Of a stretch of DNA of 32,420 bases, positions 5,600-32,420 are shown piece by piece. Source of the DNA: an uncultured Haloferacaceae archaeon (GTDB lineage Archaea; Halobacteriota; Halobacteria; Halobacteriales; Haloferacaceae); NCBI GenBank assembly GCA_964567195.1, contig CAZMLQ010000005.1:1-32420 (forward strand), in the 5' to 3' direction. Under the pieces are notes generated by a model. It had not been told where the DNA came from. It saw nothing but the letters and a program-made list of their open reading frames with translations, and searched no databases. The translations under genes and the position numbers were made by a program. The stretch's first letter is position 1; each line of letters begins with the position of its first letter.

Positions 5600-5602
5600 G
5601 GG

Positions 5603-18678: not shown

Positions 18679-18999
18679 CTGGCGACGATCCCCGGCGACG
18701 GGATCGGCCCGGCGGTGGTCGACGCCGCCGCGATGGATCTGCTCCGCCGGCCCGACGAGTTCGACGTGCTCGTCGCCTCGAACCTGTTCGGCGACGTGCC
18801 GACCGACCTCGCGGCGGCGGTGACCGGGAGGCTCGGGCTCGCGCCGTCGGCGAGCGTCGATCCCGGCGGCGACGGCCCCGGCACCTCCGGGCCGGTCCAC
18901 GGCAGCGCGCCAGACGTCGCCGACCCCGACGCCCCCCATCCCGGACCGCGGCGGGCGGGCACCGAGGGCGTCGCGGCCGACCTCGGGACCCGGATCTAG
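18679..18999 (+). pseudogene. Remnant of an isopropylmalate / isocitrate / tartrate dehydrogenase-family gene (internally deleted, about 106 codons)
   Basis: It translates as LATIPGDGIGPAVVDAAAMDLLRRPDEFDVLVASNLFGDVPTDLAAAVTGRLGLAPSASV...PVHGSAPDVA. The N-terminal GDGIGPxV motif is joined directly to the family's C-terminal-third motifs (NLFGDIxSD, GSLGLxPSA, HGSAPD). There is no plausible full-length ORF, and the tail after HGSAPDVA is divergent. Confidence 0.7.
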
Positions 19000-20360
19000 T
19001 CGAGCGCCCGCCGCAGCCGCGCCAGCGCGTCCGCCTCGGTGCCGAGCGTCTCGGCCGCCGCCCGCAGCTGCGCCACCCCGTCCTCGTCCAGCGCCGCGCC
19101 CGCGGTCGACTCGAACTTCGCGACCAGCCGCGCCTCGTCGAGCGGGGCGGTCGGACCGCCCGGGGCGTGGCGCTGGACCGCCTCGAGCCGGCGGCCGTCA
19201 GTCGTCTCGACGACCACGCGGGCGCCGTAGCCGGCGAACTCGCCGCCGAAGATGCCCGGCTCGAACTCGCGCTCGACCAGCGCCATCGCCGCGCGGGTCT
19301 CGGGGGCGCGGACGTACTCGTCGGTGAACTCCCGGACGCCCGCGTCGCCCTCGCGCAACACGGCGGCGAGACAGAACTCGATCGAGAACTTCGCCTCGAG
19401 CTCGTCGGTCGCGTCGGCGTGGATCAGCATCTCGTCGGCCGCCTCGTCCAGCGTGACGACCACCCGCTCGACCGTCTCGGGCGTCAGGTCGGCCTCCCGG
19501 ACGAGCCCCCGGAGCGCGTCCATCGCCGCGTGGGTGATCACGCCGGAGGGGTAGGGCTTGAAGCCGACGTCGGCGACCGCCCAGCGCTCGCCCAGCCCCT
19601 CGATCACGGCGTCGGGATCGTAGCCGTCGCCGACGGTCATCACGTCGCCGTAGCCCATCTCGCCGTCGAGCACGTCGGTGTCGGCGGTGAAGCCGGCGTC
19701 GGCCAGCGCCGCCGCCCGGACGCCCGCCGCGGCCGCGTGGCCGGCGTGGAGGGGTTTTGTCATCGTGCCGAAGTTGCGCTTCAGCGACGACGAGAGCGAG
19801 GCGACGATCCCGAACGCCCGCCGGGTCGCCTCGACCGAGAGCCCCCGGGCCGAGGCGGCCGCCGCGGCGGCCCCGAACGAGCCCGCCGTGCCCGTGCCGT
19901 GCCAGCCGTTCTCGTAGTGGCTCGGGTAGGTCGCGTCCGCGACCCGGAAGGCCGCCTCGCAGCCGACGGCGTAGGCCACGAGCGCCGCCCGGCCGGCCGC
20001 GAGCCCCGTGGCGCGCTCGCCCTCCAGGGTCGCGAGCGTCGCCGCGAACACCGGCGAGGTCGGGTGGACGACCACCGACTCGAAGGTGTCGTCGTAGTCG
20101 ACGGCGTGGCCGAGGGTGCCGTTGGCGAGGGCCGCCCCCGGCGGGCTGGCGGTCGTCCCGTCGAGCACCGTCGCGGCCTCGCCCGGCGCCGCCCCGGCCA
20201 CGTACGAGCGGATCCGCTCGCCCACCGGGTGGACGGCGCCGTAGACCGCGACCCCCAGGTAGTCCCGGACGGCCGTCCGCGAGGCGTCGTGGATCCGGTC
20301 GGGCACGTCGCCGTGGGCCGTCTCCGCGACGAACCGCGCGAGCGTGGCTGTCTCTCCCAT
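18996..20360 (-). CDS. MmgE/PrpD-family protein (2-methylcitrate dehydratase-like), copy 1
   Basis: 454 aa from the ATG at 20360 (MGETATLARFVAET...VRDYLGVAVYG...DYDDTF...HPTSPV), a typical MmgE_PrpD N-terminus. The upstream 116 codons of the track ORF are G/R-rich shadow. Confidence 0.88.
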   Translation of the reverse strand: MGETATLARFVAETAHGDVPDRIHDASRTAVRDYLGVAVYGAVHPVGERIRSYVAGAAPGEAATVLDGTTASPPGAALANGTLGHAVDYDDTFESVVVHPTSPVFAATLATLEGERATGLAAGRAALVAYAVGCEAAFRVADATYPSHYENGWHGTGTAGSFGAAAAAASARGLSVEATRRAFGIVASLSSSLKRNFGTMTKPLHAGHAAAAGVRAAALADAGFTADTDVLDGEMGYGDVMTVGDGYDPDAVIEGLGERWAVADVGFKPYPSGVITHAAMDALRGLVREADLTPETVERVVVTLDEAADEMLIHADATDELEAKFSIEFCLAAVLREGDAGVREFTDEYVRAPETRAAMALVEREFEPGIFGGEFAGYGARVVVETTDGRRLEAVQRHAPGGPTAPLDEARLVAKFESTAGAALDEDGVAQLRAAAETLGTEADALARLRRALD

Positions 20361-20420
20361 ACCCGGGTCGGCGGGGCCACGGGCATCAAGCTCCCGGTCC
20401 CGGCGACCGCCCGCGCCGTT

Positions 20421-21500
20421 ATGCGCCACCGGCCCCTCGGACCGGCCGTGACCCGAACCGTCGCCTGTCTCGACGGCCTCGACCCCGCCTACCTCGACGC
20501 CGCGCCGACGCCGGCGTGGGACCGGATCGCCGCCGCCGGGGCGGCCGGGACCTGCGAGGGACTGGTCCCCACGCTCACCAACGTCAACAACGTCGGGATC
20601 GCGACGGGCCGGCCGCCGGCCGAGACCGGGATCGCCGGCAACAGCCGCCACGACGGCGCCGGCGGCGAGGCCTACACCGAGGCCGAGGGGAGCCGGGTCG
20701 AGACCCACCTCGCCCGCGCCGCCGCCGCCGGCGCCGACGCCGTCGTGCTCGTCGCCAAGGCCAAGCTGGAGGGGCTCGTCGGCGCGGGCGCGAGCTACGT
20801 CGCCAGCGCCGAGTCACCCCCGGCCGCGCTGGAGCGGGCGGTCGGCGCCGCGCCCGACATCTACTCCGGCGCGGCGAGCGCGTGGCTGCTCGACGCCGCC
20901 GCCCACCTCGCCGCCACCCGCGCGCCAGACCTGCTCTACGTCTCCACCACCGACGTGGTGGCACACGGCCACGCCCCGGACGAGCCGGCCGCCCGCGAGT
21001 GGGTGCGCGCGCTCGACGACGGGCTCGACGCGCTCGCCGGGCACGGGCCGCTCGTCGCCGTCGCCGACCACGGCATGAACGAGAAGCGCCGCCGGGTCGA
21101 CCTCCGCGGGCTCGTCGGCCCCGACGCGACCGTGGTCCGGCCGATCCGCGACCGCCACACCGACCACCACCGCAACCTCGGCGGGGCGGCCTACGTCCAC
21201 GCCGCGCCAGACGGCGACGGCGACGGCGGCCTCGACCGCGACCGACTCCGGGCCGTCGACGGCGTCGAGCGCGTGCTCGGGCCGGCGGCCGCCGCCGACC
21301 GGTTCGCGCTCTTGCCCGATCGGGTGGGCGAGGCGCTGGTGCTTGGCGACCGCGAGACGGTCTTTGGCCCCGTCGCGGACGGGACCGCCGACGCGGTCGA
21401 GCTTCGCTCGCACGGCTCGGTCCACGAGCGGACGGTGCCGTACCTCAGCTCGACGGGGGCGACGCTGGCCGAGAGCCGGCGGGCCTTCGACGCGCTCTAG
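20421..21500 (+). CDS. Alkaline-phosphatase-superfamily hydrolase, phosphonoacetate hydrolase (PhnA)-like
   Basis: Candidate Thr-nucleophile motif VPTLTNVNNVGIATGRPPAETGIAGN, and metal-ligand motifs YVSTTDVVAHGHAP, VAVADHGMN and LRSHGSVHE. I trimmed the start to the ATG at 20421. Confidence 0.8.
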   Translation: MRHRPLGPAVTRTVACLDGLDPAYLDAAPTPAWDRIAAAGAAGTCEGLVPTLTNVNNVGIATGRPPAETGIAGNSRHDGAGGEAYTEAEGSRVETHLARAAAAGADAVVLVAKAKLEGLVGAGASYVASAESPPAALERAVGAAPDIYSGAASAWLLDAAAHLAATRAPDLLYVSTTDVVAHGHAPDEPAAREWVRALDDGLDALAGHGPLVAVADHGMNEKRRRVDLRGLVGPDATVVRPIRDRHTDHHRNLGGAAYVHAAPDGDGDGGLDRDRLRAVDGVERVLGPAAAADRFALLPDRVGEALVLGDRETVFGPVADGTADAVELRSHGSVHERTVPYLSSTGATLAESRRAFDAL

Positions 21501-22729
21501 GGGATGCCGCCGGCCGCGCGCAGGGCGTCGAGGTCGGCGTCGTCGTAGCCGAGCTCGCGCAACACGGCCTCGGTGTCCTCGCCCAGCAGGGGCGGCGGGG
21601 AGTCGAAGCCGGGATCGAGACGGCGGAAGTTCAGCGGGTGTTCGACGACCGGGACGGTGCCGGCGCTCGGGTGGTCGAGCTCGGTGACGACCCCGCGGGC
21701 CTCGGTCTGCTCGCTCTCGAAGGCCTCGGGCACCGTGTTGACCGGGCCGACGGGGACGCCGTGCTCGTCGGCGAGCAGGTCCACCCACTCGTCGGTGGGG
21801 CGCTCGCGAAAGACCGCCGACAGCTCGGTCTCGAGCTCGTCCATGTGCTCGACCCGGTCGGCGTTGGTGGCGAAACGGTCGTCGGCCGCGAGGTCGGGGC
21901 GCTCGATCGCCGTACACAGCGCCTCCCAGAGCTTCTGGTTCCCACAGCCGACGTTGAGGTAGCCGTCGGCGGTCGGGTAGGCCTGGTAGGGCGCGAGCAC
22001 CGGGTCCTTCGTCCCCATCCGGCCGGGCGTCTCGCCGACGAAGGCCTTCCCCGCCTGCTTGGTCAGCCACGGGAGCGCGGCGTCGTGCATCCCGAGTTCG
22101 ATCCGGTCGCCCTCGCCGGTCCGCTCGCGGGCCAGCAGCGAGCCGGTGATGCCAAACGCCGCCCACATCGCGGTGATCAGGTCCGTCTGGGGCAGGCCGA
22201 CCTTGCACGGCTCGCCGTCCTCGGGGCCCGTCACGGACATGATGCCGCTGGTGCCCTGGACCAGCAGGTCGTAGCCCGGCCGCTTCGCCCACGGCCCGGT
22301 CTCGCCGAACGCGGAGATCGAGCAGTAGATCACGCTCTCGTTGACCGCACGGACGTCGTCGTAGGCGACGCCCAGTCGCTCGGCGGTGCCGGGCCGGAAG
22401 TTCTCGAGGAAGACGTCGGCCTCGCTCGCCAGGTCGAGCAGGGCGGCGTGGCCCGCCTCGGTCTTGAGGTCGAACTCGACGCTTCGCTTGTCGTAGTTGA
22501 TCGTCCAGAAGTACGGCGACTCGCCGCCCTCGGCCGCGGTCGTTCCCGGTCCCTCGGTCGGCTCGGGCTCGACGAACGGCGGGCCCGAGTGGCGGTTGTC
22601 GTCGCCGACGCCGGGGCGTTCGACCTTGATCACGTCGGCGCCCTGGTTGGCGAGCATCAGCGACGCGAACCCGCCGGTGACGAACGTCGTCAGATCGACG
22701 ACGGTGACGCCGTCGAGAAAGCCGGACAT
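21497..22729 (-). CDS. Family III CoA-transferase (CaiB/BaiF/Frc type), copy 1
   Basis: LDGVTVVDLTTFVTGGFASLMLANQGADVIKVERP and the catalytic-Asp region PGYDLLVQGTSGIMSVTG are present. ATG at 22729. Confidence 0.9.
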   Translation of the reverse strand: MSGFLDGVTVVDLTTFVTGGFASLMLANQGADVIKVERPGVGDDNRHSGPPFVEPEPTEGPGTTAAEGGESPYFWTINYDKRSVEFDLKTEAGHAALLDLASEADVFLENFRPGTAERLGVAYDDVRAVNESVIYCSISAFGETGPWAKRPGYDLLVQGTSGIMSVTGPEDGEPCKVGLPQTDLITAMWAAFGITGSLLARERTGEGDRIELGMHDAALPWLTKQAGKAFVGETPGRMGTKDPVLAPYQAYPTADGYLNVGCGNQKLWEALCTAIERPDLAADDRFATNADRVEHMDELETELSAVFRERPTDEWVDLLADEHGVPVGPVNTVPEAFESEQTEARGVVTELDHPSAGTVPVVEHPLNFRRLDPGFDSPPPLLGEDTEAVLRELGYDDADLDALRAAGGIP

Positions 22730-22862
22730 GACCCGACCCCCGCCGCCGGGCGTCTTAGTCGTTTCCCGTGGCCGACGGGTCGTCGCCGTCCGTGCCGACC
22801 CGGACCGTCCCTCGTCCACGTGTGACGCCCCCCCAGCCGGCCGGTCTCGCCGGGACGCGCCG

Positions 22863-22871
22863 GTTTTAGTG
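22863..22871 (+). promoter_or_regulatory. TATA-like box (gttttagtg) about 27 nt upstream of the MFS start codon
   Basis: It is the only A/T-rich element near the 3' end of the 164-nt divergent intergenic region. The spacing fits a leaderless transcript starting at the GTG at 22894. Confidence 0.4.
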
Positions 22872-22893
22872 ACCGGCTCGCCACCGAACGGAC

Positions 22894-24126
22894 GTGTCCG
22901 GAGAGACCGTCACGGCCAGCGGCGCGCGGCGCCGGGAGTCGCTGGTCCGGGGCTACGGCGGCCGTCTGCTCGCGGTCGTCTCGCTTGGCTGGCTGACGAT
23001 CCAGGGCGGCCGACTGTTGCTCTCGCCGATGCTGCCCCGGATCATCGCCGACCTCTCGATCACCCCCTTCCTCGCCGGGGTGGCGCTCTCGACGCTCTGG
23101 GGGGTGTACGCCCTGCTCCAGTACCCGAGCGGCCGGCTCTCGGACCGGCTCTCGCGGAAGGCGCTGCTGGTCGCGGGGCTGGCGCTGGGGATCGCCGGCT
23201 TCGGCCTCGTCGGCCTCGCTCCCACCTACCCCGTCTTCCTGGTCGGGGCGGCCGTGCTCGGCCTCGGCGCCGGCCTCTATCCGACCGCCGCCCGCGCGCT
23301 CATCTCCGATCACTTCGTCGAGAAGCGCGGCGGCGCGTTCGGCCTCCACACCGCCTCCGGCGACGTGGGCGGCGGGCTCGCCGCCGGCCTCGCGGTGGTC
23401 GCACTCGCGGCCGCCACCTGGCGGGTCGCCTTCCTCCCCGTGGTGGTCGTGCTCGCGGTGGCGCTGGTCTGGCTCCACCGTCTCGGCCGGGAGGGCTACG
23501 CGCTCCGGCGGGTCGACCTGGACGTGCGCGGCGCCGCCGGCCGGCTGTTCGCCGACGCCGACACCCGGCGTCTGATCGGCGCCTACGCCTGCTTCGCGTT
23601 CGTCTGGCAGTCGACCGCGAGCTTCCTGCCCACCTTCCTCCGGGAGGCCAAGACGCTCTCGCCGGCGGTGGCCTCGGCCGGCTTCGCCGGCCTCTTTCTG
23701 GTCGGTGCGGTCGTCAAGCCGCTCTCGGGCCGGATCGGCGACCGGTTCGGCAAGGCCCCCGTCGCCGCCGGCGCGATCAGTCTCGCCGCCGGCTCGCTCG
23801 CGCTGGTCGTCCTCGTCGACGGCCCGGTCGCCGTCGTCGCCGCCACCCTGCCCTACGCCGCCGGGCTGATGGCCTACCCCCCGGCGATGCAGTCGTATCT
23901 GATGGACGTCTTCCCCGACGCGAGCATGGGCGCCGACCTCGGGTTCGCGCGCACCGTCTACATCGGCCTCGGCGCGCTCGGCCCGGCCTACGTCGGCTTC
24001 GTCGCCGAGCGAGCCTCCTACCGCGTCGCGTTCGCCGGGCTCGTCGCCCTCCTCGTCGTCGCGGCCGCGGTCATCGTCCGCCGGCTCCCGACGGGGGGCG
24101 ACGCGGCCGCCGCGGCGGACGGCTGA
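22894..24126 (+). CDS. MFS transporter
   Basis: About 12 predicted hydrophobic segments. MFS motif A (GRLSDRLSRK) is present and repeats in the second half (GRIGDRFGK). GTG start. Confidence 0.88.
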   Translation: MSGETVTASGARRRESLVRGYGGRLLAVVSLGWLTIQGGRLLLSPMLPRIIADLSITPFLAGVALSTLWGVYALLQYPSGRLSDRLSRKALLVAGLALGIAGFGLVGLAPTYPVFLVGAAVLGLGAGLYPTAARALISDHFVEKRGGAFGLHTASGDVGGGLAAGLAVVALAAATWRVAFLPVVVVLAVALVWLHRLGREGYALRRVDLDVRGAAGRLFADADTRRLIGAYACFAFVWQSTASFLPTFLREAKTLSPAVASAGFAGLFLVGAVVKPLSGRIGDRFGKAPVAAGAISLAAGSLALVVLVDGPVAVVAATLPYAAGLMAYPPAMQSYLMDVFPDASMGADLGFARTVYIGLGALGPAYVGFVAERASYRVAFAGLVALLVVAAAVIVRRLPTGGDAAAAADG

Positions 24127-24145
24127 CCGCCCGGCCCGCCCGCGC

Positions 24146-24523
24146 TCACGCCAGCGACTCGACGAGTTCGAGCACGTAGCCCTCGGGGTCCTCGACGAAC
24201 GCCACCCGCGAGCCCGCGGCCTCGACGGTCCGGGGCTCGACGACGACCGGACAGCCCGTCTCGTCGACCAGCGCCTCGAAGGCGGCGTCCACGTCGTCGA
24301 CGCCGACCGCGACGTGATCGAGCGTCTCGCGGTCTGGCGCGACCGGCGTCTCGCGGTCGGGGTCGTGGCGGAACTGGAGTTCGCCGCCCTCGCCGCCGAC
24401 GTAGACGTTCTCGACGCCGTCGGCGGTGAACGAGCCCCGCTCGTCCAGCCCCACCGCGTCGACGTAGAACGAGCGCATCGCCTCGAGGTCCTCGACGTGG
24501 ACGGCCGTGTGGATCACGTCCAT
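24146..24523 (-). CDS. VOC (glyoxalase/bleomycin-resistance/dioxygenase) family protein
   Basis: 125 aa with a paired beta-alpha-beta-beta-beta signature: N-terminal HTAVHVEDLEAMRSFY and C-terminal DHVAVGVDDVD...FVEDPEGYVLELVE. Confidence 0.8.
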   Translation of the reverse strand: MDVIHTAVHVEDLEAMRSFYVDAVGLDERGSFTADGVENVYVGGEGGELQFRHDPDRETPVAPDRETLDHVAVGVDDVDAAFEALVDETGCPVVVEPRTVEAAGSRVAFVEDPEGYVLELVESLA

Positions 24524-24594
24524 ACCCGCCGGTCGGGCCCCGGGCTCATAGGTGCGCCGGCGGCTCTATTAGGCCCCCGGCCCGCCCCGCCGAC

Positions 24595-25032
24595 ATGGAC
24601 GAGTCGGCCGTCGAGTTCGTCGCCGAACTCGGGGTTCGCTTTCGCGACGTCGACGCGATGGGCCACGTGAACAACGCCGTCTACGCCACCTACCTCGAAC
24701 AGGCACGCGCCGAGTACTTCGGCGAGGTGGTCGGCCGGCCGCTCGACGACGTGGGCACGGTACTCGTCGACCTCCACGTCGAGTACCGCCGGCCGATCGA
24801 ACTCGCCGACGACACCGTGACGGTCCGGCTGCGCGTGGCAGACGTGGGCGAGTCCAGCGTCGAGATGGCCTACGAGGTGTGCGCCGGCGGCGAGGTGGCC
24901 GCGACCGCCGAGACGACCCAGGTGGTGATCGACGACGACGGCCGCCCACGTCGGGTGCCGGCGGACTGGCGCGAGCGGATCGCGGCGCGGGCGCGGGCCC
25001 GGGCGGACGAGAGCGACGGGAGGACGGACTGA
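24595..25032 (+). CDS. Acyl-CoA thioesterase, 4HBT/YbgC hotdog family
   Basis: The motif FRDVDAMGHVNNAVYATYLEQAR (catalytic Asp plus GHVNN) is typical of YbgC/4HBT thioesterases. A TATA-like ctattagg at 24566-24573 lies about 26 nt upstream. Confidence 0.82.
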   Translation: MDESAVEFVAELGVRFRDVDAMGHVNNAVYATYLEQARAEYFGEVVGRPLDDVGTVLVDLHVEYRRPIELADDTVTVRLRVADVGESSVEMAYEVCAGGEVAATAETTQVVIDDDGRPRRVPADWRERIAARARARADESDGRTD

Positions 25033-25076: not shown

Positions 25077-26492
25077 ATGAGCGATTCGAGCGCGACCGAG
25101 CGACTCGTCGAGCACGCCCTCGCGACCGCCGAGACCGGCCTCTCGGAGGCGGTCCGGGACCGACTCGGCCAGCATCTCCTCGACACGCTGGGGGTGAGCA
25201 TCGGCGGCGAGGCGGTGGCGGCCTCCAGCCCCGCGATGGCCGCGGCGGTCGCCGATCTCGCCGGCACCGGCGGCGAGGCGACCGTCCTCGCGACCGGCGA
25301 GCGCCGGCCGGCCGCCGACGCCGCGCTGTTGAACGGCGCCTATGCCCACAGCCTCGACTTCGACGACACCCACCGCGAGTCCTCGCTCCACCCCGGCGCG
25401 GCGGTCGTGCCGGCGGCGCTCGCGGTCGCCGAGCGCGAGGGCGCGACCGCCGACCGCACCCTCGCGGGGATCGCGGCGGGCTACGACGTGGCCTGTACGG
25501 TCGGGCGCGCGGTCGGGCCCGACGCCCACTACGACCGGGGCTTTCACCTCACCGCCACCTGTGGCACCTTCGGCGCGACCGCGGCCGCGGGCGTGGTGGC
25601 GGGGCTCTCGCGGGCCGAACTCGTCGCCGCGTTCGGCGTCAACGGCTCGCAGGCCGCCGGCTCGCTCCAGTTTCTCGCCAACGGAGCCTGGAACAAGCGT
25701 CTCCACCCCGGGCTGGCCGCCCGCCGGGCCGTCGAGGCCGTCGCCCTCGGCGCGGCCGGCTTTCGCGGCGCCGACCGCCCGCTCGAGGGCGAGTTCGGCT
25801 TCCTCCGCGCCTACTCCGACGAGCCGAACCCGGCGGCCGTCGACGACGTCGGCGACCGGTCGGCGGTGCTGGAGACGGCGCTCAAGCCCTACCCCTGCTG
25901 TCGGTACACCCACCCCGCGCTCGACGCGCTGGTCGAGCTCTCGGACGCGGTCGACCCCTCGGCGGTCGACCGGATCGTCGTCGACCTGCCGAGCCCGGGC
26001 GTCAGGCTCACCGGCGATCCGATCGCGGCCAAGCGCCGGCCGGAGAACTTCGTCGACTGCCAGTTCAGCATGCCCTTCGCCGCCGCGCTGGCGCTCGAGC
26101 GGGGCGAGGCCGGCCTCGCGGCCTTCCGCGCCGCACAGGACGGCCTCGACGACCCCGACCGCCGGCGGCTGATGGACGCCACCGAGGTCGTCACCACCGA
26201 CGCGGTCGCCGAGCGCTTCCCCGAGCGGTGGGCCGCCCGCGTCGTGGTCGAGGCCGGCGGCGACCGCCACGAGCGACTGGTCGAGACCGCCCGCGGCGAG
26301 CCCGAGCGCCCGCTGGGCTGGACGGGTGTGACCGAGAAGTTCGCGGAGCTCGCCGCCGCCGCCGGCGTGTCGACGGCCGACGCCGACCGGATCGTGGACG
26401 CCACCCGCGGGCTGACCGACGGCGAGCGCCCGCTCGACGAGCTCGTCGGCGCGCTCCGGGCGGCCGCCGCGCCCGCCTCGACCGCCGACTAG
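25077..26492 (+). CDS. MmgE/PrpD-family protein, copy 2
   Basis: 471 aa with full-length MmgE_PrpD architecture (LVEHALAT...LDTLGVSIGG...DFDDTH...HPGAAV...KPYPCCRYTHPALDA). Confidence 0.88.
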   Translation: MSDSSATERLVEHALATAETGLSEAVRDRLGQHLLDTLGVSIGGEAVAASSPAMAAAVADLAGTGGEATVLATGERRPAADAALLNGAYAHSLDFDDTHRESSLHPGAAVVPAALAVAEREGATADRTLAGIAAGYDVACTVGRAVGPDAHYDRGFHLTATCGTFGATAAAGVVAGLSRAELVAAFGVNGSQAAGSLQFLANGAWNKRLHPGLAARRAVEAVALGAAGFRGADRPLEGEFGFLRAYSDEPNPAAVDDVGDRSAVLETALKPYPCCRYTHPALDALVELSDAVDPSAVDRIVVDLPSPGVRLTGDPIAAKRRPENFVDCQFSMPFAAALALERGEAGLAAFRAAQDGLDDPDRRRLMDATEVVTTDAVAERFPERWAARVVVEAGGDRHERLVETARGEPERPLGWTGVTEKFAELAAAAGVSTADADRIVDATRGLTDGERPLDELVGALRAAAAPASTAD

Positions 26493-27565
26493 AGCACCGA
26501 GACGCCCCGCTCGGCGCCGAGCCCCCGCAGCCGCTCGACGATCCGGTCGTCGAGCGGGATCCCCTCCTCGCGTCGACGCCCGCACGTCTCGTGCTCGACG
26601 GCGCCCGGGAGCCGGTAGCGCTCGCCCGTCGCACCCGCTCCGGGCCCCGGTCCGGTCGCGTAGTCGGCCTCGCGGAGGTGGGCGGCGAGCGCCGCCACCC
26701 GGTCGCACACGCCGGCGCGGTCGGTGAACGCCAGCGGATCGACCGCGAGAAAGAGCGCGGCGTTGTTCGACCGGCCGGGCTCGACGGCGCCGGCGACCGG
26801 CGCGGCGCCCGCGATCCCCGCGAACAGCTCGGCGATCACGGCGAGGCCGGTCCCCTTGTAGCCCGCGGTCCGCCCGCCGAGCGGGAGGAGCGCGCCCGCG
26901 CCGGCCTCGAACGCCGCGGCGTCGGTGACGGGCTCGCCGGCGTCGTCGGTCGTCCAGCCCGCCGGCGCCGGCTCGCCGGTGGCCGCGCGCTCGCGGAGCT
27001 TCCCGTGGGCGACCTGGCTGGTGGCGAGATCGAGCACGAGGTCGTGATCGAGCGCGTCGAAGGTCGGCACGGCGAAGGTGAGCGGGTTGGTCGAGAGCCG
27101 GCGGTCGGCGCTGCCGGCCGGCGCGACGGTGTGGCCGCCGCCGCCGGAGTTGACGAACGAGGCGAAGCAGTAGCCGGCCGCGGCGGTCCGCTCGGCCCAC
27201 TCGCCGACCCGGCCGAGGTGGGTGGCCCGGCGCAGGCCGACCGCGGCCACGCCCGTCTCGCCCGCCCGCTCGGTCAGGCGGGCGACCGCCTCGCGGCCGA
27301 CCACCTGGCCGTAGGCGTTCCGGCCGTCGATCGAGGCGAGCGCCGGCGTCGCCCGCTCGACGGCCGGGCTCGCGGTCGGATCGATCACGCCCGCCTCGAC
27401 GAGGTCGGCGTAGTAGGGCAGCCGGAGGACGCCGTGGGAGCCGTGGCCGCGCAGGTCGGCGTCGACGAGGCTCTCGGCCACCGCCGCGGCCGTCGACTCG
27501 GGCGCCCCCTCGGCCGCGAGCAGGCTCGTCGCCGCCGCCGTCAGCCGCTCGGGTTCGACGCGCAT
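26489..27565 (-). CDS. Ldh_2-family NAD(P)-dependent 2-hydroxyacid dehydrogenase (malate/L-lactate/sulfolactate/ureidoglycolate dehydrogenase family)
   Basis: ATG at 27565 (MRVEPERL...). Motifs DLRGHGSHGVLRLPYY, HLGRVGEWAE and STNPLTFAVP are typical of Ldh_2. Confidence 0.85.
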   Translation of the reverse strand: MRVEPERLTAAATSLLAAEGAPESTAAAVAESLVDADLRGHGSHGVLRLPYYADLVEAGVIDPTASPAVERATPALASIDGRNAYGQVVGREAVARLTERAGETGVAAVGLRRATHLGRVGEWAERTAAAGYCFASFVNSGGGGHTVAPAGSADRRLSTNPLTFAVPTFDALDHDLVLDLATSQVAHGKLRERAATGEPAPAGWTTDDAGEPVTDAAAFEAGAGALLPLGGRTAGYKGTGLAVIAELFAGIAGAAPVAGAVEPGRSNNAALFLAVDPLAFTDRAGVCDRVAALAAHLREADYATGPGPGAGATGERYRLPGAVEHETCGRRREEGIPLDDRIVERLRGLGAERGVSVL

Positions 27566-27727: not shown

Positions 27728-28513
27728 ATGTCGGACCACGACGCCTACGAGAGCATCGCGGTGTCGGTCGACGACGGGGTGGCACGGATCACCCTGCGCC
27801 GGCCGGAGAAGCTGAACGCCCTCTCGACGGCGGTGATGCTCGACCTCCAGCGGGCCTTCTCGGCGATCCGACTGGACCGCGACGTCGAGGTGGTCGTGCT
27901 CGAGGGCGCGGGCGAGGAGGCGTTCTCGGCGGGCGCGGACATCGAGGGCTACGCCGGGTCGGCCGACGAGCACGACCCCCACCAGCGCGAGCGTCAGGAG
28001 CTCTTCTACGAGGTCTACCGCGCGCCCTACGACTGTCACGCGCCGACGGTGGCGAAGATCGACGGCTACTGTCTCGGCGGCGGGCTGATCCTCGCGATGT
28101 ACTGTGACCTCCGGGTGGCGACCGCGGACGCCTCGTTCGGCGTGCCGGTGACCGACATCGGCCAGATTCCGACCGGCGGCTCGACCTACCGGGCGATCGA
28201 TCTCGTGGGCGAGGCGGCGACCAAGGAGCTCGTGTTCACCGCCGGTCGCGTCGGGGCCGACCGGGCGGGCGAGCTTGGGCTGGTCAACCGGGTGGTGCCC
28301 GACGCCGCGGCGCTCGACGACGAGGTCGAGGGCGTCGTCGACGCCGTCCGCGCGACCGGGCACGAGGCGGTCAAGCGGAGCAAGCGGGCGCTCAACGCCG
28401 CGAGCGAGGCGTCGGACCTCGACGCCGCCCGGGCGCGCGAGGCCGAACTCTGGTGGGAGCAGTTCGCCACCGCCGAGCGCGAACGCCTGGTCGGGGAGTT
28501 CGTCGACTCGTGA
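27728..28513 (+). CDS. Enoyl-CoA hydratase/isomerase (crotonase) family protein
   Basis: ATG at 27728. Oxyanion-hole motifs EAFSAGADI and GYCLGGGLILAMYCDLRVA are present, and the N-terminus is VARITLRRPEKLNAL. Confidence 0.9.
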   Translation: MSDHDAYESIAVSVDDGVARITLRRPEKLNALSTAVMLDLQRAFSAIRLDRDVEVVVLEGAGEEAFSAGADIEGYAGSADEHDPHQRERQELFYEVYRAPYDCHAPTVAKIDGYCLGGGLILAMYCDLRVATADASFGVPVTDIGQIPTGGSTYRAIDLVGEAATKELVFTAGRVGADRAGELGLVNRVVPDAAALDDEVEGVVDAVRATGHEAVKRSKRALNAASEASDLDAARAREAELWWEQFATAERERLVGEFVDS

Positions 28514-29727
28514 CGGGGACGGGTCCACTCGACGGCCTGCGGGTGGTCGAACTGACCGTCCACCGCGCCGGCCCGTTCTGTGGCGCGCTGCTCGCGGACA
28601 TGGGCGCCGAGGTGGTCAAGATCGAGCGCCCCGGGACGGGCGATCCGACCCGCTCGCAGGGGCCGGCCCCGCCGGAGGGGCCGGCGGGCTACTTCCAGGC
28701 GCTCAACCGGAACAAGCGGTCGGTGACGGTCGATCTGAAGACCGAGGCGGGCGTCGAGGCCGCCCGCGACCTGCTGGCGCGCGCCGACGTGTTCGTCGAG
28801 AACGTGGGCTACGGCGTCGCCGAGCGCCTGGGCGTGGGCTACGAGGACCTCGCGCCCCGCAACGAGGGGCTGGTCTACGCGAGCGTCAAGGGCTACGGCC
28901 GGACCGGCCCGCTCAAGGAGAAGCCGGGGTTGGACCTCGTGCTCCAGGCCGAGGCCGGACTCATGTCGCTCACGGGGCCCGAGGGCGGCCCGCCGGTGAA
29001 GGTGGGCCAGGCGGTCGGCGATCTGACCGCCGGCACCCTCGCCGCGGTGGGCGTGCTCGCGCGCCTCCACGAGCGCGCCCGGACCGGCGAGGGCGGGCGG
29101 TTCGACGTGGGGCTGTTCGACGCGGTGGCGAGCCTGCTCAACGAGTACGTCACCAACTACTCGCTGACGGGCGAGGTGCCGGGGCCCCAGGGCACCAGCC
29201 ACCAGACGATGGTGCCCTACGGGCTGTTCGAGACGGCCGACGGCCACATCGTGACCGGCGTGCCCGCCGACGACCGCTGGGACGAGTTCGTCGACGCGGT
29301 CGGCTGCGAGTCGGTGCGGGACCGGCGAACGAACGACGAGCGCGCGGCCGACCGCGAGGCGGTGACCGAGGCCATCGCCGCCCGGCTGCGGACCGAGCCG
29401 ACCGCCCACTGGGAGGCGGTGCTCACCGAGGCGGGCTTTCCCAACGGCCCGCTCAACGACGTGGCCGAGGTGGTCGCCCACGAGCAGACCGCCGCCCGCG
29501 AGCTCGCGGTCGAGGTCGACCTCGACGAGGCCGAGGTGGGTGCGGGCGAGGGCACCTGTCTCCTCCCCGGCCACCCGCTCAACTTCCCCGACCACCCCGA
29601 CGTGGGGGTGCGCGAGCCGGCGCCCGCGCTCGGGGCCGACACCGACGCCGTCTTCGGCGACGTGGCCGGCGACCAGACCACCCTCGACGAGTGGCGCGAG
29701 GGCGGAGCGTTCGGGGCCGACGACTGA
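28510..29727 (+). CDS. Family III CoA-transferase, copy 2
   Basis: LDGLRVVELTVHRAGPFCGALLADMGAEVVKIERP and PGLDLVLQAEAGLMSLTG are present. The GTG start at 28510 overlaps the crotonase TGA (GTGA), implying translational coupling. The earlier track start at 28453 lies inside the crotonase gene. Confidence 0.88.
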   Translation: MTGTGPLDGLRVVELTVHRAGPFCGALLADMGAEVVKIERPGTGDPTRSQGPAPPEGPAGYFQALNRNKRSVTVDLKTEAGVEAARDLLARADVFVENVGYGVAERLGVGYEDLAPRNEGLVYASVKGYGRTGPLKEKPGLDLVLQAEAGLMSLTGPEGGPPVKVGQAVGDLTAGTLAAVGVLARLHERARTGEGGRFDVGLFDAVASLLNEYVTNYSLTGEVPGPQGTSHQTMVPYGLFETADGHIVTGVPADDRWDEFVDAVGCESVRDRRTNDERAADREAVTEAIAARLRTEPTAHWEAVLTEAGFPNGPLNDVAEVVAHEQTAARELAVEVDLDEAEVGAGEGTCLLPGHPLNFPDHPDVGVREPAPALGADTDAVFGDVAGDQTTLDEWREGGAFGADD

Positions 29728-29770
29728 TCGGCGCGGAGTGGCCCGTCGGCCCCGCCCGCCGCCCGCCGTC

Positions 29771-30853
29771 CTACGCCGCGTCGGCGTCGAGGCGCGCGCG
29801 GTGTTTCTCGAGGTCGGTCCGGACCTCGTCCCACGCGACCGGGTGGTCGTGGTCGTCGAGCGCCGCCTCGAACGCGTCGATGACGCCGCCGTGGCGCTCG
29901 ATCCGGCCCGGTCGCGCGAGGTCGTCGAGGCGGGCCTCCAGCCGATCGCGCCGGCGCTCGAGGTCGGCGAGCCGGTCCGCGAGGTCGGCCCGGCGCTCGG
30001 CGCGCTCCGCGAAGTGGGCGTCGACCTCGTCGGGGTCGGCCCCGCCGGTCGCGGCGTCGCGCTCGGCGTCCCCGCGGGCGCGCTCGGCCCACGTCTCGAG
30101 GTCGTCGAGTTCGGCGCACACGTCGGCCAGGAGCAGTCCGAGCGAGCGCAGCCGGAGGCCGGCGTCGGCCCACGCCGCGTCGGGGTCGGTCACGTCGGCG
30201 ACGGCCTCGGGATTGGGGTCGCCCTCGCCGTCGGCGGCCGCGACGGCGTCGACCGCGCCCGCCAGCCCCTCGAGCGCCTCCGCGACGGCGTCGGCGTCGC
30301 CCTCGAGCTCGCACAGCCGGCGGTCCGGGTCCGAGGCCCACTCGTCGAAGGACTCGATCTCGACGCCGAGCACGTCGGCCGTGTGGCGGACGTCCTCGGC
30401 GGCCGACTCCAGGCGGTGGATCTCGCTCGCCACCGTGTACAGCGGGTCGTCGTCGGCCCGGTCGACGATCCCGGAGAGCCGGTCGCCGAGCGCGTCGGTC
30501 CGCTCGCGCACCTCGTCGAGGCGGCGCTCGAACGCCGCCAGCCGGCCGGCGACGACGTCGAGGTCGGCGATCGGCTCGGCCTGTCGGCGGGCGTCCTCGA
30601 GGTTGAGGCGGGCGAACTCGGTCCGGCTCTCGGCGGTCGCGACGACCTTCGAGAGCTCGCCGAGGGCGGGCTCGACCGCCTCGCGGGTGAGGACGCCGTC
30701 CTCGGTCAGCGCCGAGAGCACGGTCTCGGCGGTCGCCTCGTCGGTGCCGTGGCGCTCGGCGACGACCGTCGCCGCCGCCTCGACCGACAGCCCCGCGAGA
30801 CGGTCGGGCGCGTCGGGCGCGTCGGGCGCGTCGCGGTCGTCGGGCTCGTCCAT
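29771..30853 (-). CDS. Highly acidic, predicted coiled-coil hypothetical protein (360 aa), no recognisable catalytic domain
   Basis: ATG at 30853 (MDEPDDRDAPDAPDAPD...). It has haloarchaeal-type D/E/A/R-rich, heptad-like composition (RLADLERRRDRLEARLDDL). The coding call rests on length, composition unlike the R/G/P shadow ORFs, and a TATA-like element about 27 nt upstream. Confidence 0.6.
   Translation of the reverse strand: MDEPDDRDAPDAPDAPDRLAGLSVEAAATVVAERHGTDEATAETVLSALTEDGVLTREAVEPALGELSKVVATAESRTEFARLNLEDARRQAEPIADLDVVAGRLAAFERRLDEVRERTDALGDRLSGIVDRADDDPLYTVASEIHRLESAAEDVRHTADVLGVEIESFDEWASDPDRRLCELEGDADAVAEALEGLAGAVDAVAAADGEGDPNPEAVADVTDPDAAWADAGLRLRSLGLLLADVCAELDDLETWAERARGDAERDAATGGADPDEVDAHFAERAERRADLADRLADLERRRDRLEARLDDLARPGRIERHGGVIDAFEAALDDHDHPVAWDEVRTDLEKHRARLDADAA
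30803..30829. repeat. 9-nt tandem repeat (gtcgggcgc) x3, plus a degenerate fourth unit
   Basis: Read directly. It encodes the (APD)3 run at the N-terminus of the acidic hypothetical protein on the minus strand. Confidence 0.85.
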
Positions 30854-30930
30854 GGCCGTAGCTCCCCGCCCCGGCCGATTAGCCCTTCGGTCGCGCCCGG
30901 GACCGGAACCGGAACCGGGGGGATCGGCAG

Positions 30931-30939
30931 CGTTAACAC
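30931..30939 (+). promoter_or_regulatory. TATA-like box (cgttaacac) about 27 nt upstream of the acyl-CoA dehydrogenase ATG
   Basis: It is one of only two A/T-containing elements in the 108-nt divergent intergenic region; the other (gattag, 30877-30882) sits about 27 nt from the opposing gene's start. Confidence 0.35.
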
Positions 30940-30961
30940 CCGACCCACCCCAGCCCGAGCC

Positions 30962-32167
30962 ATGCAGGCGCGTCTCGAGGCGGACCTGACGGACGAACAG
31001 CGCCTCGTCCGGCGGAGCATCTCGGAGATCTGTGCGGACTACGACGACGAGTACTGGCGCGAGCACGCCCGCACGGGCGAGTACCCCGACGAGTTCGTCG
31101 ACACGCTGGCCGAGGAGGGCTGGTTCGGCGTCCTGATCCCCGAGGAGTACGGCGGTGCGGGGATGGGCACCGAGGAGACGGTCGTGATGATGGAGGAGAT
31201 CGCGGCCTCGGGCGGCGGGTTCGCGGCCGCCCAGGCCGTCCACGGCGCGATCTACAACTCCGCGCCCATCGTCGAGTACGCCGACGAGACCACGCGCGAG
31301 CAGCTCCTGCCGGCGGTCGCCCGCGGCGAGACCCGGATCCAGGCGTTCGGCCTGACCGAGCCAAACGCCGGCTCGGACTCGACCCGGATCGAGACCCGCG
31401 CCGAGCGCGACGGCGACGAGTACGTGATCACCGGCCAGAAGATCTGGACCTCGCGGGTCGATCGCTCGGACTACCTGCTGCTGGTCGCGCGCACCACCCC
31501 CCGCGACGAGGTGGAGAAGCGCACCCGCGGCATCTCGACGTTCCTGGTCGATCTCGACGCGGCCCGGGCCTCCGACGCCTTCGAGACGGACCACATCGAG
31601 AAGACCGCAAGCGAGTTCGTCCACTCCTACCAGCTCTACTTCGAGGGGCTGCGGATCCCCGCCGACGCCCTGCTGGGCGAGGAGGGCGAGGGCTTCTACC
31701 AGGTGCTCGACGGGCTGAACGAGGAGCGGCTGGTGATCGCGGCCGAGGCGATCGGGCTGGGCGAGCTGGCGATCGAGCGCGGCGCGGAGTACGCCGCCGA
31801 GCGCGAGGTGTTCGGCGGACCGATCGGCGCCAACCAGGCGGTCCAGCACCCCCTCGCGGCCGCCCACGCTCGGGTCCAGGCCGCCCGTCAGCTCACCTTC
31901 GAGGCCGCCTCGCGCTCGGCCGCGGACGACCTCTCGCGCGAGGCGCTCGGCGCGCGCGCCAACATGGCGAAGTATCTCGCCGCCGAGGCCGCCTTCGAGG
32001 CCGCCGACGCCGCCGTTCAGGCCCACGGCGGCTTCGGCGTCGCCACCGAGTACGATGTCGAGCGCTACCTGCGCGAGGCCCGCCTGACCCGGCTGGTCCC
32101 CATCGCCCAGGAGCTGGCGCTCAACTACCTCGGCGAGAAGGAGCTCGGTCTGCCGCGGTCGTACTGA
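30962..32167 (+). CDS. Acyl-CoA dehydrogenase family protein (non-canonical C-terminal active-site region)
   Basis: 401 aa with FGLTEPNAGSD, ITGQKIWTS and GGFGV..EY.VERYLREARL. The usual YEGT(N/S) motif is replaced by VPIA. Confidence 0.9.
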   Translation: MQARLEADLTDEQRLVRRSISEICADYDDEYWREHARTGEYPDEFVDTLAEEGWFGVLIPEEYGGAGMGTEETVVMMEEIAASGGGFAAAQAVHGAIYNSAPIVEYADETTREQLLPAVARGETRIQAFGLTEPNAGSDSTRIETRAERDGDEYVITGQKIWTSRVDRSDYLLLVARTTPRDEVEKRTRGISTFLVDLDAARASDAFETDHIEKTASEFVHSYQLYFEGLRIPADALLGEEGEGFYQVLDGLNEERLVIAAEAIGLGELAIERGAEYAAEREVFGGPIGANQAVQHPLAAAHARVQAARQLTFEAASRSAADDLSREALGARANMAKYLAAEAAFEAADAAVQAHGGFGVATEYDVERYLREARLTRLVPIAQELALNYLGEKELGLPRSY

Positions 32168-32213
32168 GCCCGGGCCGCCAACGCTTTTGCCACCCGCCCG
32201 CGTCGGGGGGGCC

Positions 32214-32420
32214 GTGACCGACGACACCGAGGCCGACGACGGCGAGCGCCGCATCGTCGCGGGCTGGGACGGGCGCTACTACGAGGACTTCGAGGTGGGC
32301 GACGTCTACAAACACCCGTACGGCCGGACGGTAACCGAGACCGACAACGTCTGGCTGACCAACCTGACGATGAACCTCAACCCGATGCACTTCAACGAGG
32401 AGTACGCCGCGGCGACGGAG
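32214..32420 (+). CDS. MaoC-like (R)-specific enoyl-CoA hydratase / acyl dehydratase, N-terminal fragment (runs off the window)
   Basis: From the GTG at 32214: VTDDTEADDGERRIVAGWDGRYYEDFEVGDVYKHPYGRTVTETDNVWLTNLTMNLNPMHFNEEYAAATE. The GRT(I/V)TExD...LTxNxNPxHF pattern is typical of MaoC dehydratases of the itaconyl-/mesaconyl-CoA hydratase type. The start codon is uncertain. Confidence 0.75.
   Translation, partial: MTDDTEADDGERRIVAGWDGRYYEDFEVGDVYKHPYGRTVTETDNVWLTNLTMNLNPMHFNEEYAAATE

Follow-up and report, generated by a model that had tools for sequence, protein, structure and literature searches.

A multi-operon catabolic island common to several haloarchaeal families has its local copy at positions 17006 to 32420 of the window (the whole 32,420-nt stretch of haloarchaeal DNA analyzed here) and in the sequence beyond. 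The island may encode a multi-operon pathway for substituted C4-dicarboxylates, running via CoA esters but with cleavage as free acids; a probability of about one half is given to this reading. No publication on this island was found in the literature.

Gene Content and Extent of the Island

Genes in 18996-32420 were called by GC3 frame analysis together with Pfam. There are 13 (g1 to g13), of which all but g11 have a Pfam family; they are listed here with three upstream features:

17006..17374, minus strand: cupin protein, left edge of the island (Pfam Cupin_2)
17467..18603, plus strand: MR/MLE protein (enolase superfamily) with a 1-nt frameshift (Pfam MR_MLE_C/N)
18676..18918, plus strand: tartrate-dehydrogenase-type Iso_dh remnant (Pfam Iso_dh, profile positions 218-285)
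18996..20360, minus strand: g1, MmgE/PrpD protein (Pfam)
20421..21500, plus strand: g2, PhnA-like hydrolase of the alkaline phosphatase superfamily (Pfam Phosphodiest)
21497..22819, minus strand: g3, family III CoA-transferase (Pfam CoA_transf_3, 400 bits)
22894..24126, plus strand: g4, MFS transporter, divergent from g3 (Pfam MFS_1)
24146..24523, minus strand: g5, VOC/glyoxalase protein, 125 aa, accessory (Pfam Glyoxalase)
24595..25032, plus strand: g6, 4HBT/YbgC-type acyl-CoA thioesterase (Pfam 4HBT_2)
25077..26492, plus strand: g7, second MmgE/PrpD protein (Pfam)
26489..27565, minus strand: g8, Ldh_2 family 2-hydroxyacid dehydrogenase (Pfam, 296 bits)
27728..28513, plus strand: g9, crotonase-fold enoyl-CoA hydratase/isomerase (Pfam ECH_1)
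28510..29727, plus strand: g10, family III CoA-transferase (Pfam CoA_transf_3)
29771..30853, minus strand: g11, acidic hypothetical protein, no family
30962..32167, plus strand: g12, acyl-CoA dehydrogenase (Pfam)
32214..32420, plus strand: g13, single-domain MaoC hydratase, 5′ part of 69 codons, cut by the window end (Pfam MaoC_dehydratas)

A first-pass annotation, made from the sequence alone, had assigned 12 of the 13 genes to small-acid or acyl-CoA families, and Pfam recovers the same families. It had begun the island at 18996; the left edge lies instead at about 17006. The cupin gene, the frameshifted MR/MLE gene and the tartrate dehydrogenase remnant that occupy 17006-18996 have orthologues inside islands of other families. 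At the other end, the island certainly extends beyond 32420.

The upstream cupin protein is 70-71% identical to orthologues inside the Halorussus and Halomarina islands. The MR/MLE frameshift is located in a C-run near 18475-18485: with the Halomarina orthologue as tblastn query, residues 3-340 and then 338-378 align in two frames, and the gene is either a pseudogene or affected by a sequencing error. The tartrate dehydrogenase remnant keeps only residues ~203-284 of 351 (tblastn, Halomarina query), while the full-length Halomarina orthologue meets TIGR02089 (471.2 bits, cut-off 470.4). The module of CoA-transferase, MR/MLE and tartrate dehydrogenase has decayed in this genome.

A separate gene call, made on a Logan contig, gives exactly the same g8 (358 aa) and g9 (261 aa) products. 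Alignments of g3 begin only at residue ~31, so its start codon is probably the ATG at 22729. The g9 stop overlaps the g10 start in a GTGA at 28510-28513, bearing out the translational coupling of crotonase and CoA-transferase noticed earlier. No protein reaches the NCBIfam equivalog cut-offs for itaconate, mesaconate, glutarate, or methylcitrate enzymes, and no shared operator motif was found in the divergent promoter regions. Both results count against the reading given above.

Conservation Across Haloarchaea

Orthologues of 11 of the 13 genes, and of the three upstream genes, co-localize at 51-83% identity in megaplasmid islands of 30-37 kb. The carriers of these islands, Halorussus aquaticus, Haladaptatus salinisoli, and Halomarina sp. 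BND7, belong to two other families, and operon order is shuffled among them. Because the orthologues co-localize in islands of other families, the clustering is not due to chance; the neighborhood check proposed with the first-pass annotation is answered by co-conservation of the genes across three haloarchaeal families. All three cross-family islands have orthologues of g1, g2, g3, g7, g9, g10, g12, and g13, and of the MR/MLE and tartrate dehydrogenase genes; the cupin gene is in Halorussus and Halomarina, and g6 and g8 are in Halorussus only. Genes for TcuA, an isocitrate lyase (ICL)-family lyase, Fe-ADH, and IclR lie alongside. Seven of the eight plasmids holding a g1 orthologue have a g12 orthologue at most 45 kb away. 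Modules also occur separately, as with the IclR-MFS-g3 group that stands alone in Halorubrum lacusprofundi; several independent pathways may simply share one island.

Enzymes of the Island

The two MmgE/PrpD proteins are 34% identical to each other. The g1 product has no match among the NCBIfam equivalogs, that of g7 scores 34 bits against the PrpD equivalog (cut-off 950), and IDS epimerase is the top PDB match of both (172 and 138 bits, respectively). A succinate backbone is common to all characterized MmgE/PrpD substrates (PMC12290011). Both proteins are proposed to be epimerase- or decarboxylase-like, not PrpD dehydratases. Orthologues of g1 (65-68% identity, three other genera) come first in a PrpD-cupin-TcuA operon of other islands, complete in Haladaptatus; those of g7 (65%, three genera) have a CoA-transferase-hypothetical-PrpD-MFS arrangement in Halorussus and Haladaptatus.

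Orthologues of g3, which falls under all equivalog cut-offs, are 68-77% identical, and those of g10 64-66%. A g10 orthologue is directly downstream of the g9 orthologue every time (g9 identity 63-65%). The g8 dehydrogenase is likewise under equivalog cut-offs (Halorussus orthologue, 61% identity), and thioesterase g6 has orthologues among close relatives (59-64%) and in Halorussus (58%). The g4 transporter is only 28-32% identical to the MFS proteins of other islands, making it an analogue and not an orthologue of these. The VOC protein g5 is found at 75% identity in the two closest MAGs only, with weaker copies (40-50%) in two other loci and no orthologue in the three cross-family islands.

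For g11 no family was found in Pfam or NCBIfam; over its N-terminal half it shares 34-46% identity with haloarchaeal proteins annotated as “hypothetical protein” or “halo transducer protein,” many relatives have an ADP-forming acyl-CoA synthetase in its position, and it is outside the pathway. The g2 protein scores 179 bits against TIGR02335 (cut-off 407), and its PDB matches are phosphonoacetate hydrolases only (150 bits). It is conserved in all three cross-family islands (53-58% identity), and has no place in the proposed pathway.

The g12 dehydrogenase is 62-85% identical to its counterparts across haloarchaea, and 43-50% identical to dehydrogenases that bacteria encode in dehydrogenase-CoA-transferase-MaoC operons. 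Among the bacterial operons that contain its closest relatives, a few also have a CoA-ester lyase, and one also has a PrpD gene; a Solirubrobacterales locus reads lyase-PrpD-MaoC-CoA-transferase-dehydrogenase, its PrpD being 40% identical to g7. Of the 27 haloarchaeal loci in which the dehydrogenase has 4 kb or more of flank on either side, 25 have a MaoC gene nearby and 17 a PrpD gene, although in many genomes the dehydrogenase-MaoC pair occurs without the rest of the island. Full-length g13 orthologues are ~190-215 aa, and the top PDB match of the MaoC protein is a beta-methylmalyl-CoA dehydratase (8hgn).

No CitE/HpcH homologue is present in the window, as the first-pass annotation had stated. 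It had also predicted an HpcH/HpaI-type lyase just after MaoC; this is not borne out by the closest relatives. Downstream of MaoC these encode a third CoA-transferase and a TcuA-type flavoprotein, next, in four of the five whose flank is long enough, a PrpB-like lyase, and last ThiF. Elsewhere, in other families, it is an IclR regulator gene that comes after MaoC. Just one of the 27 haloarchaeal loci has a CitE/HpcH lyase, and none lies within the Halorussus, Haladaptatus, or Halomarina islands (a Haladaptatus aceB, encoding a malate synthase and weakly CitE-like, is ~3 kb outside). At 392 bits, the flavoprotein of relatives passes the TcuA equivalog cut-off (369); their isocitrate-lyase-family proteins carry a KRCGH motif and are closest to PrpB (274 bits, cut-off 354). 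No TcuA, ICL-type lyase, or IclR gene is inside the window; by synteny only, all three may be expected downstream of it in this genome.

Proposed Pathway and Alternatives

From these gene families we infer a substrate class, an order of steps, and an exit by release and then cleavage. The substrates would derive from succinate or malate, with branched C5 acids and tricarboxylates as examples, and would be imported by MFS transporters. The MmgE/PrpD proteins g1 and g7 and the Ldh_2 protein g8 would act on the still-free acid, before CoA loading by the CoA-transferases g3 and g10 (or, in relatives, by the ADP-forming ligase). Desaturation of the ester by g12 would be followed by hydration by the Ich-like MaoC protein g13, the crotonase g9, or both. 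Release as a free hydroxy-acid is proposed because no CoA-ester lyase is encoded; it might be carried out by the thioesterase g6, or the CoA might be handed back to fresh substrate, the recycling logic of carnitine CaiB/CaiD/CaiA. Two enzymes that are island members in relatives could then act on the free acid: the KRCGH-type isocitrate-lyase-family enzyme would cleave it, or a tartrate-dehydrogenase-type enzyme would decarboxylate it oxidatively.

The first-pass annotation had favored an itaconate-methylsuccinate-type pathway. Its gene-set parallel, its separation of the island from the methylaspartate cycle, and its expectation of co-conservation have stood; its predicted lyase has not. It is unlikely that the Pseudomonas/Cupriavidus pathway (Ict, Msi, Mcd, Ich) has its direct archaeal counterpart here, with a final citramalyl-CoA or malyl-CoA lyase encoded just beyond the window or at another site in the genome. 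PA0878-PA0882 are matched family for family, including the VOC protein (125 aa here, 127 aa for PA0880); RipB/Ich is the family nearest to the MaoC protein; the Solirubrobacterales locus, with its g7-like PrpD, combines the same families with a lyase; and Mct accepts methylsuccinate (PMC5592240). However, no CoA-ester lyase is present in the window, in any of the three cross-family islands, or in 26 of the 27 haloarchaeal loci, other genes follow MaoC in the closest relatives, 96% of known methylsuccinate isomerases are from Pseudomonadota, and every score is under its equivalog cut-off. Such a pathway would also leave TcuA, tartrate dehydrogenase, MR/MLE, and the ICL-type lyase unused, along with Ldh_2, the second and third CoA-transferases, and the PhnA-like gene.

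It is also unlikely that the island is instead a mobile metabolic assemblage of unrelated small catabolic operons with no common pathway, for example tartrate/D-malate, tricarballylate, beta-oxidation-like acyl-CoA, and phosphonate/phosphate-scavenging modules. This would fit the megaplasmid location, the shuffling of operon order between genera, the occurrence of modules alone elsewhere, and their independent loss or decay (in the window, the MR/MLE frameshift, the tartrate dehydrogenase remnant, and the loss of a ligase). It is harder to reconcile with some 14-16 of the same families being shared as a group by four genera from three families, with carboxylic acids or CoA esters being substrates of every enzyme family present, and with the divergent pairing of a crotonase/CoA-transferase/ligase/dehydrogenase/MaoC operon with a CoA-transferase-MR/MLE-tartrate-dehydrogenase operon in Haladaptatus; in Halomarina, the crotonase-CoA-transferase pair is divergently paired with the latter type of operon in the same way. 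Ordinary beta-oxidation genes for fatty acids or branched-chain amino acids, beside acid-handling genes by chance, are highly improbable: one public record annotates a g12 orthologue as isovaleryl-CoA dehydrogenase, and close relatives have a 3-hydroxyacyl-CoA dehydrogenase and second acyl-CoA dehydrogenase nearby, but the island is without thiolase or carboxylase, a family III CoA-transferase gene is translationally coupled to that of its crotonase, the nearest relatives of its MaoC protein are mesaconyl/itaconyl-CoA hydratases, and g12 has PrpD, MaoC, and CoA-transferase neighbors, not beta-oxidation genes.

Comparison with Known Systems

The composition given in the first-pass annotation for PA0878-PA0883 agrees with the literature: Ich, acyl-CoA dehydrogenase (Mcd), a 127-aa VOC protein, MmgE/PrpD (methylsuccinate isomerase), Ict, and Ccl (PMC9875883, PMC12290011). 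With Cupriavidus necator E6A55_22580-22600 (Ich, Mcd, RdoPA, Msi, Ict, Ccl), this is the itaconate-methylsuccinate degradation cluster; its CoA-transferase is described as class III (PMC5592240). At the level of families, the window has a counterpart for every PA0878-PA0883 member except Ccl. The shared logic is a free-acid isomerase, CoA transfer, desaturation, and hydration, and IDS epimerase is the closest solved structure of the island PrpD proteins, as reported for PA0881. The island differs in its archaeal host, its several operons over 30-37 kb, its lack of a citramalyl-CoA lyase, its two PrpD and two to four CoA-transferase paralogues, and its additional crotonase, thioesterase, and Ldh_2 genes; relatives add TcuA, ICL-type lyase, tartrate dehydrogenase, MR/MLE, Fe-ADH, PhnA-like hydrolase, and IclR.

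RipB/Ich (NF038241), of Yersinia RipABC, is the best curated family for the full-length MaoC hydratase (182 bits over ~150 core residues, profile positions 20-172 of 175; cut-off 340), but the island has neither a RipA-type family I CoA-transferase nor a RipC lyase.

Mct and Mch of the methylaspartate cycle are from the same superfamilies (class III CoA-transferase, (R)-specific hydratase) and the same host class. The island CoA-transferases score 263 and 283 bits (the latter g10) against the Mct equivalog (cut-off 700), and the MaoC protein 87 bits against haloarchaeal Mch (cut-off 560), a fused double hot-dog of 358 aa compared to ~200 aa here. Orthology to Mct and Mch is therefore ruled out. 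This, the better RipB/Ich score, and the absence of glutamate mutase and methylaspartase (methylaspartate ammonia-lyase) among the genes called in the window agree with the earlier view of a module separate from that cycle.

The Salmonella tricarballylate system TcuABC and the methylcitrate cycle differ from the islands, which have no annotated tcuB and no methylcitrate synthase; MmgE/PrpD-family proteins are common to both, with PrpD equivalogs unmet (0 and 34 bits), and relatives carry the TcuA-equivalog flavoprotein and the PrpB-closest KRCGH lyase. The E. coli CaiTABCDE system is for quaternary amines, while the remaining island genes point to carboxylates, and the island scores 100-123 bits against CaiB (cut-off 413) and 160 against CaiA (cut-off 540); the two are alike in uniting a crotonase, family III CoA-transferase, CoA ligase, and acyl-CoA dehydrogenase in one operon, and the Cai transferase can pass CoA from product back to substrate, as proposed for the island.

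Gene Content and Extent of the Island

Raw ORF lists are useless at the GC content of this window (66-80% G+C per kb, mean ~74%, with third codon positions ~93% GC), so genes were called from codon-position GC and each call was checked against Pfam. The predicted proteins are very acidic. The inventory of 13 genes (g1-g13) that the first-pass annotation gave for 18996-32420 was correct, and the island is larger than first reported, with three further features directly upstream of g1.

Features of the window, left to right (+ or -, strand)
60-2255: MutL
2317-8425: Opp/Dpp-type ABC transporter
8447-9280: HTH_10 regulator
9277-12126: MutS
12129-13529: ThiD-ThiN
13530-13922: RidA
13962-14615: DsbA-like protein
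14647-16944: polyphosphate kinase
17006-17374: cupin gene
17467-18603: MR/MLE gene, with a frame change in a six-C run near 18475-18485
18676-18918: tartrate-dehydrogenase-type remnant of ~80 codons (residues ~203-284 of 351 aa)
g1 (-): MmgE/PrpD
g2, 20421-21500 (+): Phosphodiest/PhnA-like
g3 (-): family III CoA-transferase (CoA_transf_3, 400 bits)
g4 (+): MFS
g5 (-): VOC
g6 (+): 4HBT thioesterase
g7 (+): MmgE/PrpD
g8 (-): Ldh_2
g9 (+): crotonase
g10 (+): family III CoA-transferase (CoA_transf_3, 384 bits)
g11, 29771-30853 (-): acidic hypothetical, 360 aa
g12 (+): acyl-CoA dehydrogenase
g13 (+): MaoC, truncated

The g9 stop and g10 start codons overlap as GTGA, and the g8 and g9 calls are identical on a Logan contig; both genes occur in identical form in SRR8816318. 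The genes to the left of 17006 are chromosomal housekeeping genes; the island is therefore chromosomal here, while in other families it is on megaplasmids. No tRNA genes were found at its borders.

Two of the upstream features look damaged. The last ~40 codons of the MR/MLE gene, which match its orthologues, are in the +1 frame; either the gene is a true pseudogene or the homopolymer was misread in sequencing. The tartrate dehydrogenase remnant is wedged between this gene and the 3′ end of g1, and this genome lacks the CoA-transferase gene that other genera have ahead of MR/MLE and tartrate dehydrogenase. A module of the island is decayed here.

No Pfam or NCBIfam family matched g11; over the N-terminal half it shares 34-46% identity with haloarchaeal proteins labelled “hypothetical protein” or “halo transducer protein,” and in many relatives its place is taken by a 720-aa ADP-forming acyl-CoA synthetase. 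The sole PDB matches of g2 are phosphonoacetate hydrolases (PhnA; 150 bits, full length), with 179 bits against the PhnA equivalog TIGR02335 (cut-off 407). It is a conserved island member in three other genera, directly beside an MFS transporter in two of the three, but nothing in dicarboxylate or CoA chemistry obviously calls for it, and the model proposed below leaves it unexplained. Halomarina also has a C-P lyase phn operon, a few kb outside the island.

Conservation Across Haloarchaea

An exact-protein look-up found no match for the g12 dehydrogenase and only a 2.5-kb Logan contig for the crotonase, and metagenome contigs gave no exact match to a 57-nt query. Protein-based scans recovered relatives at up to 85% identity in genomes and up to 75% in metagenomes. 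The nearest genomes are Haloferacaceae MAGs, whose dehydrogenases are 82-85% identical to g12. The seven MAG loci of this closest clade are arranged as 3-hydroxyacyl-CoA dehydrogenase / [VOC] / thioesterase-PrpD (g7) / Ldh_2 / crotonase-CoA-transferase (g10) / [ADP-forming acyl-CoA synthetase] / dehydrogenase (g12) / MaoC / third CoA-transferase / FAD flavoprotein / [PEP-mutase-family protein] / ThiF, with square brackets around genes that some of the seven lack.

The decisive conservation result comes from annotated megaplasmids: orthologues of g1, g3, and g12 lie at most ~25 kb apart in Halorussus aquaticus, Halorussus limi, Haladaptatus halobius, Haladaptatus salinisoli, and Halomarina BND7. 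In Natrinema zhouii the g1-g12 distance is 13 kb, with g3 far off. Three of these cross-family islands were inspected end to end and matched to the window by tblastn.

Identity of island orthologues in Halorussus aquaticus / Haladaptatus salinisoli / Halomarina sp. BND7 (dash, none found)
g1: 65 / 66 / 68%
g2: 56 / 53 / 58%
g3: 72 / 68 / 76%
g6: 58 / - / -%
g7: 65 / 65 / 65%
g8: 61 / - / -%
g9: 64 / 63 / 65%
g10: 65 / 66 / 64%
g12: 73 / 73 / 72%
MaoC: 83 / 80 / 74%
Cupin: 70 / - / 71%
MR/MLE: 51 / 52 / 55%
Tartrate dehydrogenase: 58 / 70 / 63%

These islands further include tcuA, an isocitrate-lyase (ICL)/PEP-mutase-family gene, an Fe-ADH, a fourth CoA-transferase, MFS and ABC transporters, and an IclR regulator. 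The order of operons is shuffled, but several recur: crotonase-CoA-transferase-(ligase)-dehydrogenase-MaoC; CoA-transferase-MR/MLE-tartrate dehydrogenase-(Ldh_2); CoA-transferase(g3)-hyp-PrpD(g7)-MFS; and PrpD(g1)-cupin-TcuA; as does an MFS-PhnA-like pair beside ICL-family-Fe-ADH. The dehydrogenase is flanked by at least 4 kb on either side in 27 haloarchaeal loci; of these, 25 have MaoC nearby, 17 PrpD, 15 crotonase, and 11 a CoA-transferase. Gene families, couplings, and co-localization are directly observed. TATA-like boxes lie upstream of starts in the divergent promoter regions; no shared operator was found in six divergent intergenic regions, which have in common only GC-rich 10-mers, uninformative at 75-80% GC.

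Genes Beyond MaoC in Relatives

In the nearest relatives MaoC is followed by a third CoA-transferase and then a TcuA-equivalog flavoprotein (392 bits for the orthologue in L014, a relative's locus, against a cut-off of 369 for NF006130; the gene is outside the window). PGAP labels a tcuA in all three cross-family islands (L086-L088), with no tcuB annotated in them. Of five relatives with enough flanking sequence, four also have a PrpB-like protein after MaoC. It carries KRCGH, the catalytic motif of isocitrate-lyase-type C-C lyases; because of this motif the PEP-mutase-family proteins are taken to be lyases, not phosphomutases, which makes a phosphonate reading of that gene unlikely. An IclR regulator comes after MaoC in Halorussus and Haladaptatus.

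A Possible Catabolic Role

TcuA oxidizes a substituted succinate, while 2-hydroxy-dicarboxylates are substrates of tartrate dehydrogenase, Ldh_2, and ICL-type lyases. The characterized substrates of MmgE/PrpD proteins all have a succinate backbone (PMC12290011), and for class III CoA-transferases the typical substrates are succinyl-CoA and dicarboxylates (PMC5592240). Every enzyme family of the island takes substituted succinates or malates, or the corresponding CoA esters, as substrate, and the island is therefore read as a multi-operon system for such acids. The substrate class, order of steps, and exit route are inferred. After uptake, the free acid would be converted by the PrpD-family enzymes and loaded by CoA transfer; g12 would desaturate the CoA ester, and MaoC or the crotonase would hydrate it. 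Since no CoA-ester lyase is encoded, release as a free hydroxy-acid is proposed: the thioesterase could free it, or its CoA could be passed back to substrate (compare the Cai system). In a last step the KRCGH lyase might cleave this acid, or the tartrate-dehydrogenase-type enzyme decarboxylate it.

A multi-operon acid/CoA island of this general kind is given a probability of about 0.5; confidence in any single named substrate is much lower. Narrowing it to a haloarchaeal lyase-free route for branched or substituted succinates (methylsuccinate, itaconate, tricarballylate-type acids), in which a CoA excursion precedes splitting or oxidative decarboxylation of the free acid, gives a proposal that is at present rather doubtful.

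Comparison with Known Pathways

The CoA-transferases and MaoC proved not to be plain orthologues of the methylaspartate-cycle CoA-transferase and hydratase (Mct and Mch), a possibility that the first-pass annotation had raised against its own proposal. Against the Mct equivalog NF041294 (cut-off 700 bits), g3 scores 263, g10 283, and the relatives' third CoA-transferase 248; against NF041625 (Mch, a fused double-domain 2-methylfumaryl-CoA hydratase; cut-off 560 bits) the MaoC orthologue, a single domain of ~190-215 aa, scores 87. These scores and the domain architecture rule out methylaspartate-cycle orthology, and a Pfam scan of all called genes in the window found no glutamate mutase or methylaspartate ammonia-lyase. 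A true PrpD/PrpB methylcitrate cycle is likewise ruled out: g1 matches no NCBIfam family, g7 reaches 34 bits against the 2-methylcitrate dehydratase equivalog (cut-off 950), E. coli PrpD is absent from the PDB matches of both at E<1e-5, and the relatives' PrpB-like protein, encoded outside the window, has 274 bits against the methylisocitrate lyase equivalog TIGR02317 (cut-off 354).

The island was also compared with the Pseudomonas itaconate locus PA0878-PA0883. Two papers bear out the make-up of this locus as given in the first-pass annotation, with PA0879 a (RS)-methylsuccinyl-C4-CoA dehydrogenase, PA0880 a small VOC-type lactonase, and PA0881 an (S)-(R)-methylsuccinate isomerase (PMC9875883, PMC12290011), so the family-level parallel with the island is real. 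The class III Ict-like CoA-transferase of such clusters has counterparts in g3 and g10, and Mcd has one, at the level of predicted family, in g12. Where they have Ich, the island has a MaoC gene directly after the dehydrogenase; the best curated family of its orthologue is RipB/Ich, but below cut-off (182 vs. 340 bits), and its best solved relative is beta-methylmalyl-CoA dehydratase. For Msi, sought next to Mcd, the window has two MmgE/PrpD proteins, neither of them adjacent to g12; the closest PDB structure to both is IDS epimerase, and 96% of published Msi proteins are from Pseudomonadota. Cupriavidus and Paraburkholderia PLSDB replicons were rejected as an Msi/Mcd reference, being unannotated and having a dehydrogenase-PrpD-MaoC order that differs from the published C. 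necator one.

One of the two pathway-specific enzymes is (S)-citramalyl-CoA lyase (Ccl), with an HpcH/CitE fold (PMC12290011). The HpcH/HpaI-type lyase predicted to lie just downstream of MaoC did not appear: tblastn with three bacterial CoA-ester lyases gave no match in the window, none within the three cross-family islands, and a match in only one of the 27 haloarchaeal loci. Bacterial dehydrogenases 43-50% identical to g12 share operons with CoA-transferase and MaoC genes; just four of 56 bacterial loci add a CoA-ester lyase (best family RipC/Ccl or CitE), and one Solirubrobacterales locus adds a PrpD gene. The trio of acyl-CoA dehydrogenase, family III CoA-transferase, and MaoC forms a conserved operon in many Caldilineaceae genomes (loci L032-L073), with no CoA-ester lyase within 10 kb, and a Methylobacterium locus (L076) has the trio with one. 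The trio may be a self-contained unit converting an acid to a hydroxy-acid. The Haladaptatus salinisoli plasmid carries, ~3 kb from the IclR-MaoC end of its island, a haloarchaeal-type malate synthase gene, aceB (L087, 5017-6318), which is weakly CitE-like; its product could be the missing acyl-CoA C-C enzyme in that genome. No aceB homologue was found in the window.

A literal itaconate/methylsuccinate pathway, with its lyase gene elsewhere, would share the families just compared, and the lyase is lacking from nearly all the loci searched; we consider it unlikely. That the island is a mosaic of independent small operons, and so an ordinary metabolic island, would fit both the modules found alone elsewhere and the module decay in this window; with the same families recurring together in several genera, this too seems rather improbable. 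Plain beta-oxidation would make use of the acyl-CoA dehydrogenase and hydratases, set here among families for substituted succinates and malates, and is very improbable indeed.

The multi-operon acid/CoA system, if real, would mean an archaeal branched-dicarboxylate catabolism of different architecture, with the free acid cleaved instead of the CoA ester, and would offer testable functions for haloarchaeal MmgE/PrpD proteins, class III CoA-transferase paralogues, TcuA-like flavoproteins, and PrpB-like lyases, all large and poorly characterized families. The lyase-free route, if true, would be the first in Archaea for the catabolism of C5-branched dicarboxylates, and at odds with the view of Borjian et al. 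that a methylsuccinate role in any haloarchaeal pathway is doubtful (PMC5592240). Cultured strains with the whole island (Halorussus aquaticus XZYJ18, Haladaptatus salinisoli PSR8, and Halomarina sp. BND7) make experiments directly possible. Literature searches found no description of this island in haloarchaea; all of its components are from known families, and its logic is a variation on known dicarboxylate-CoA clusters.
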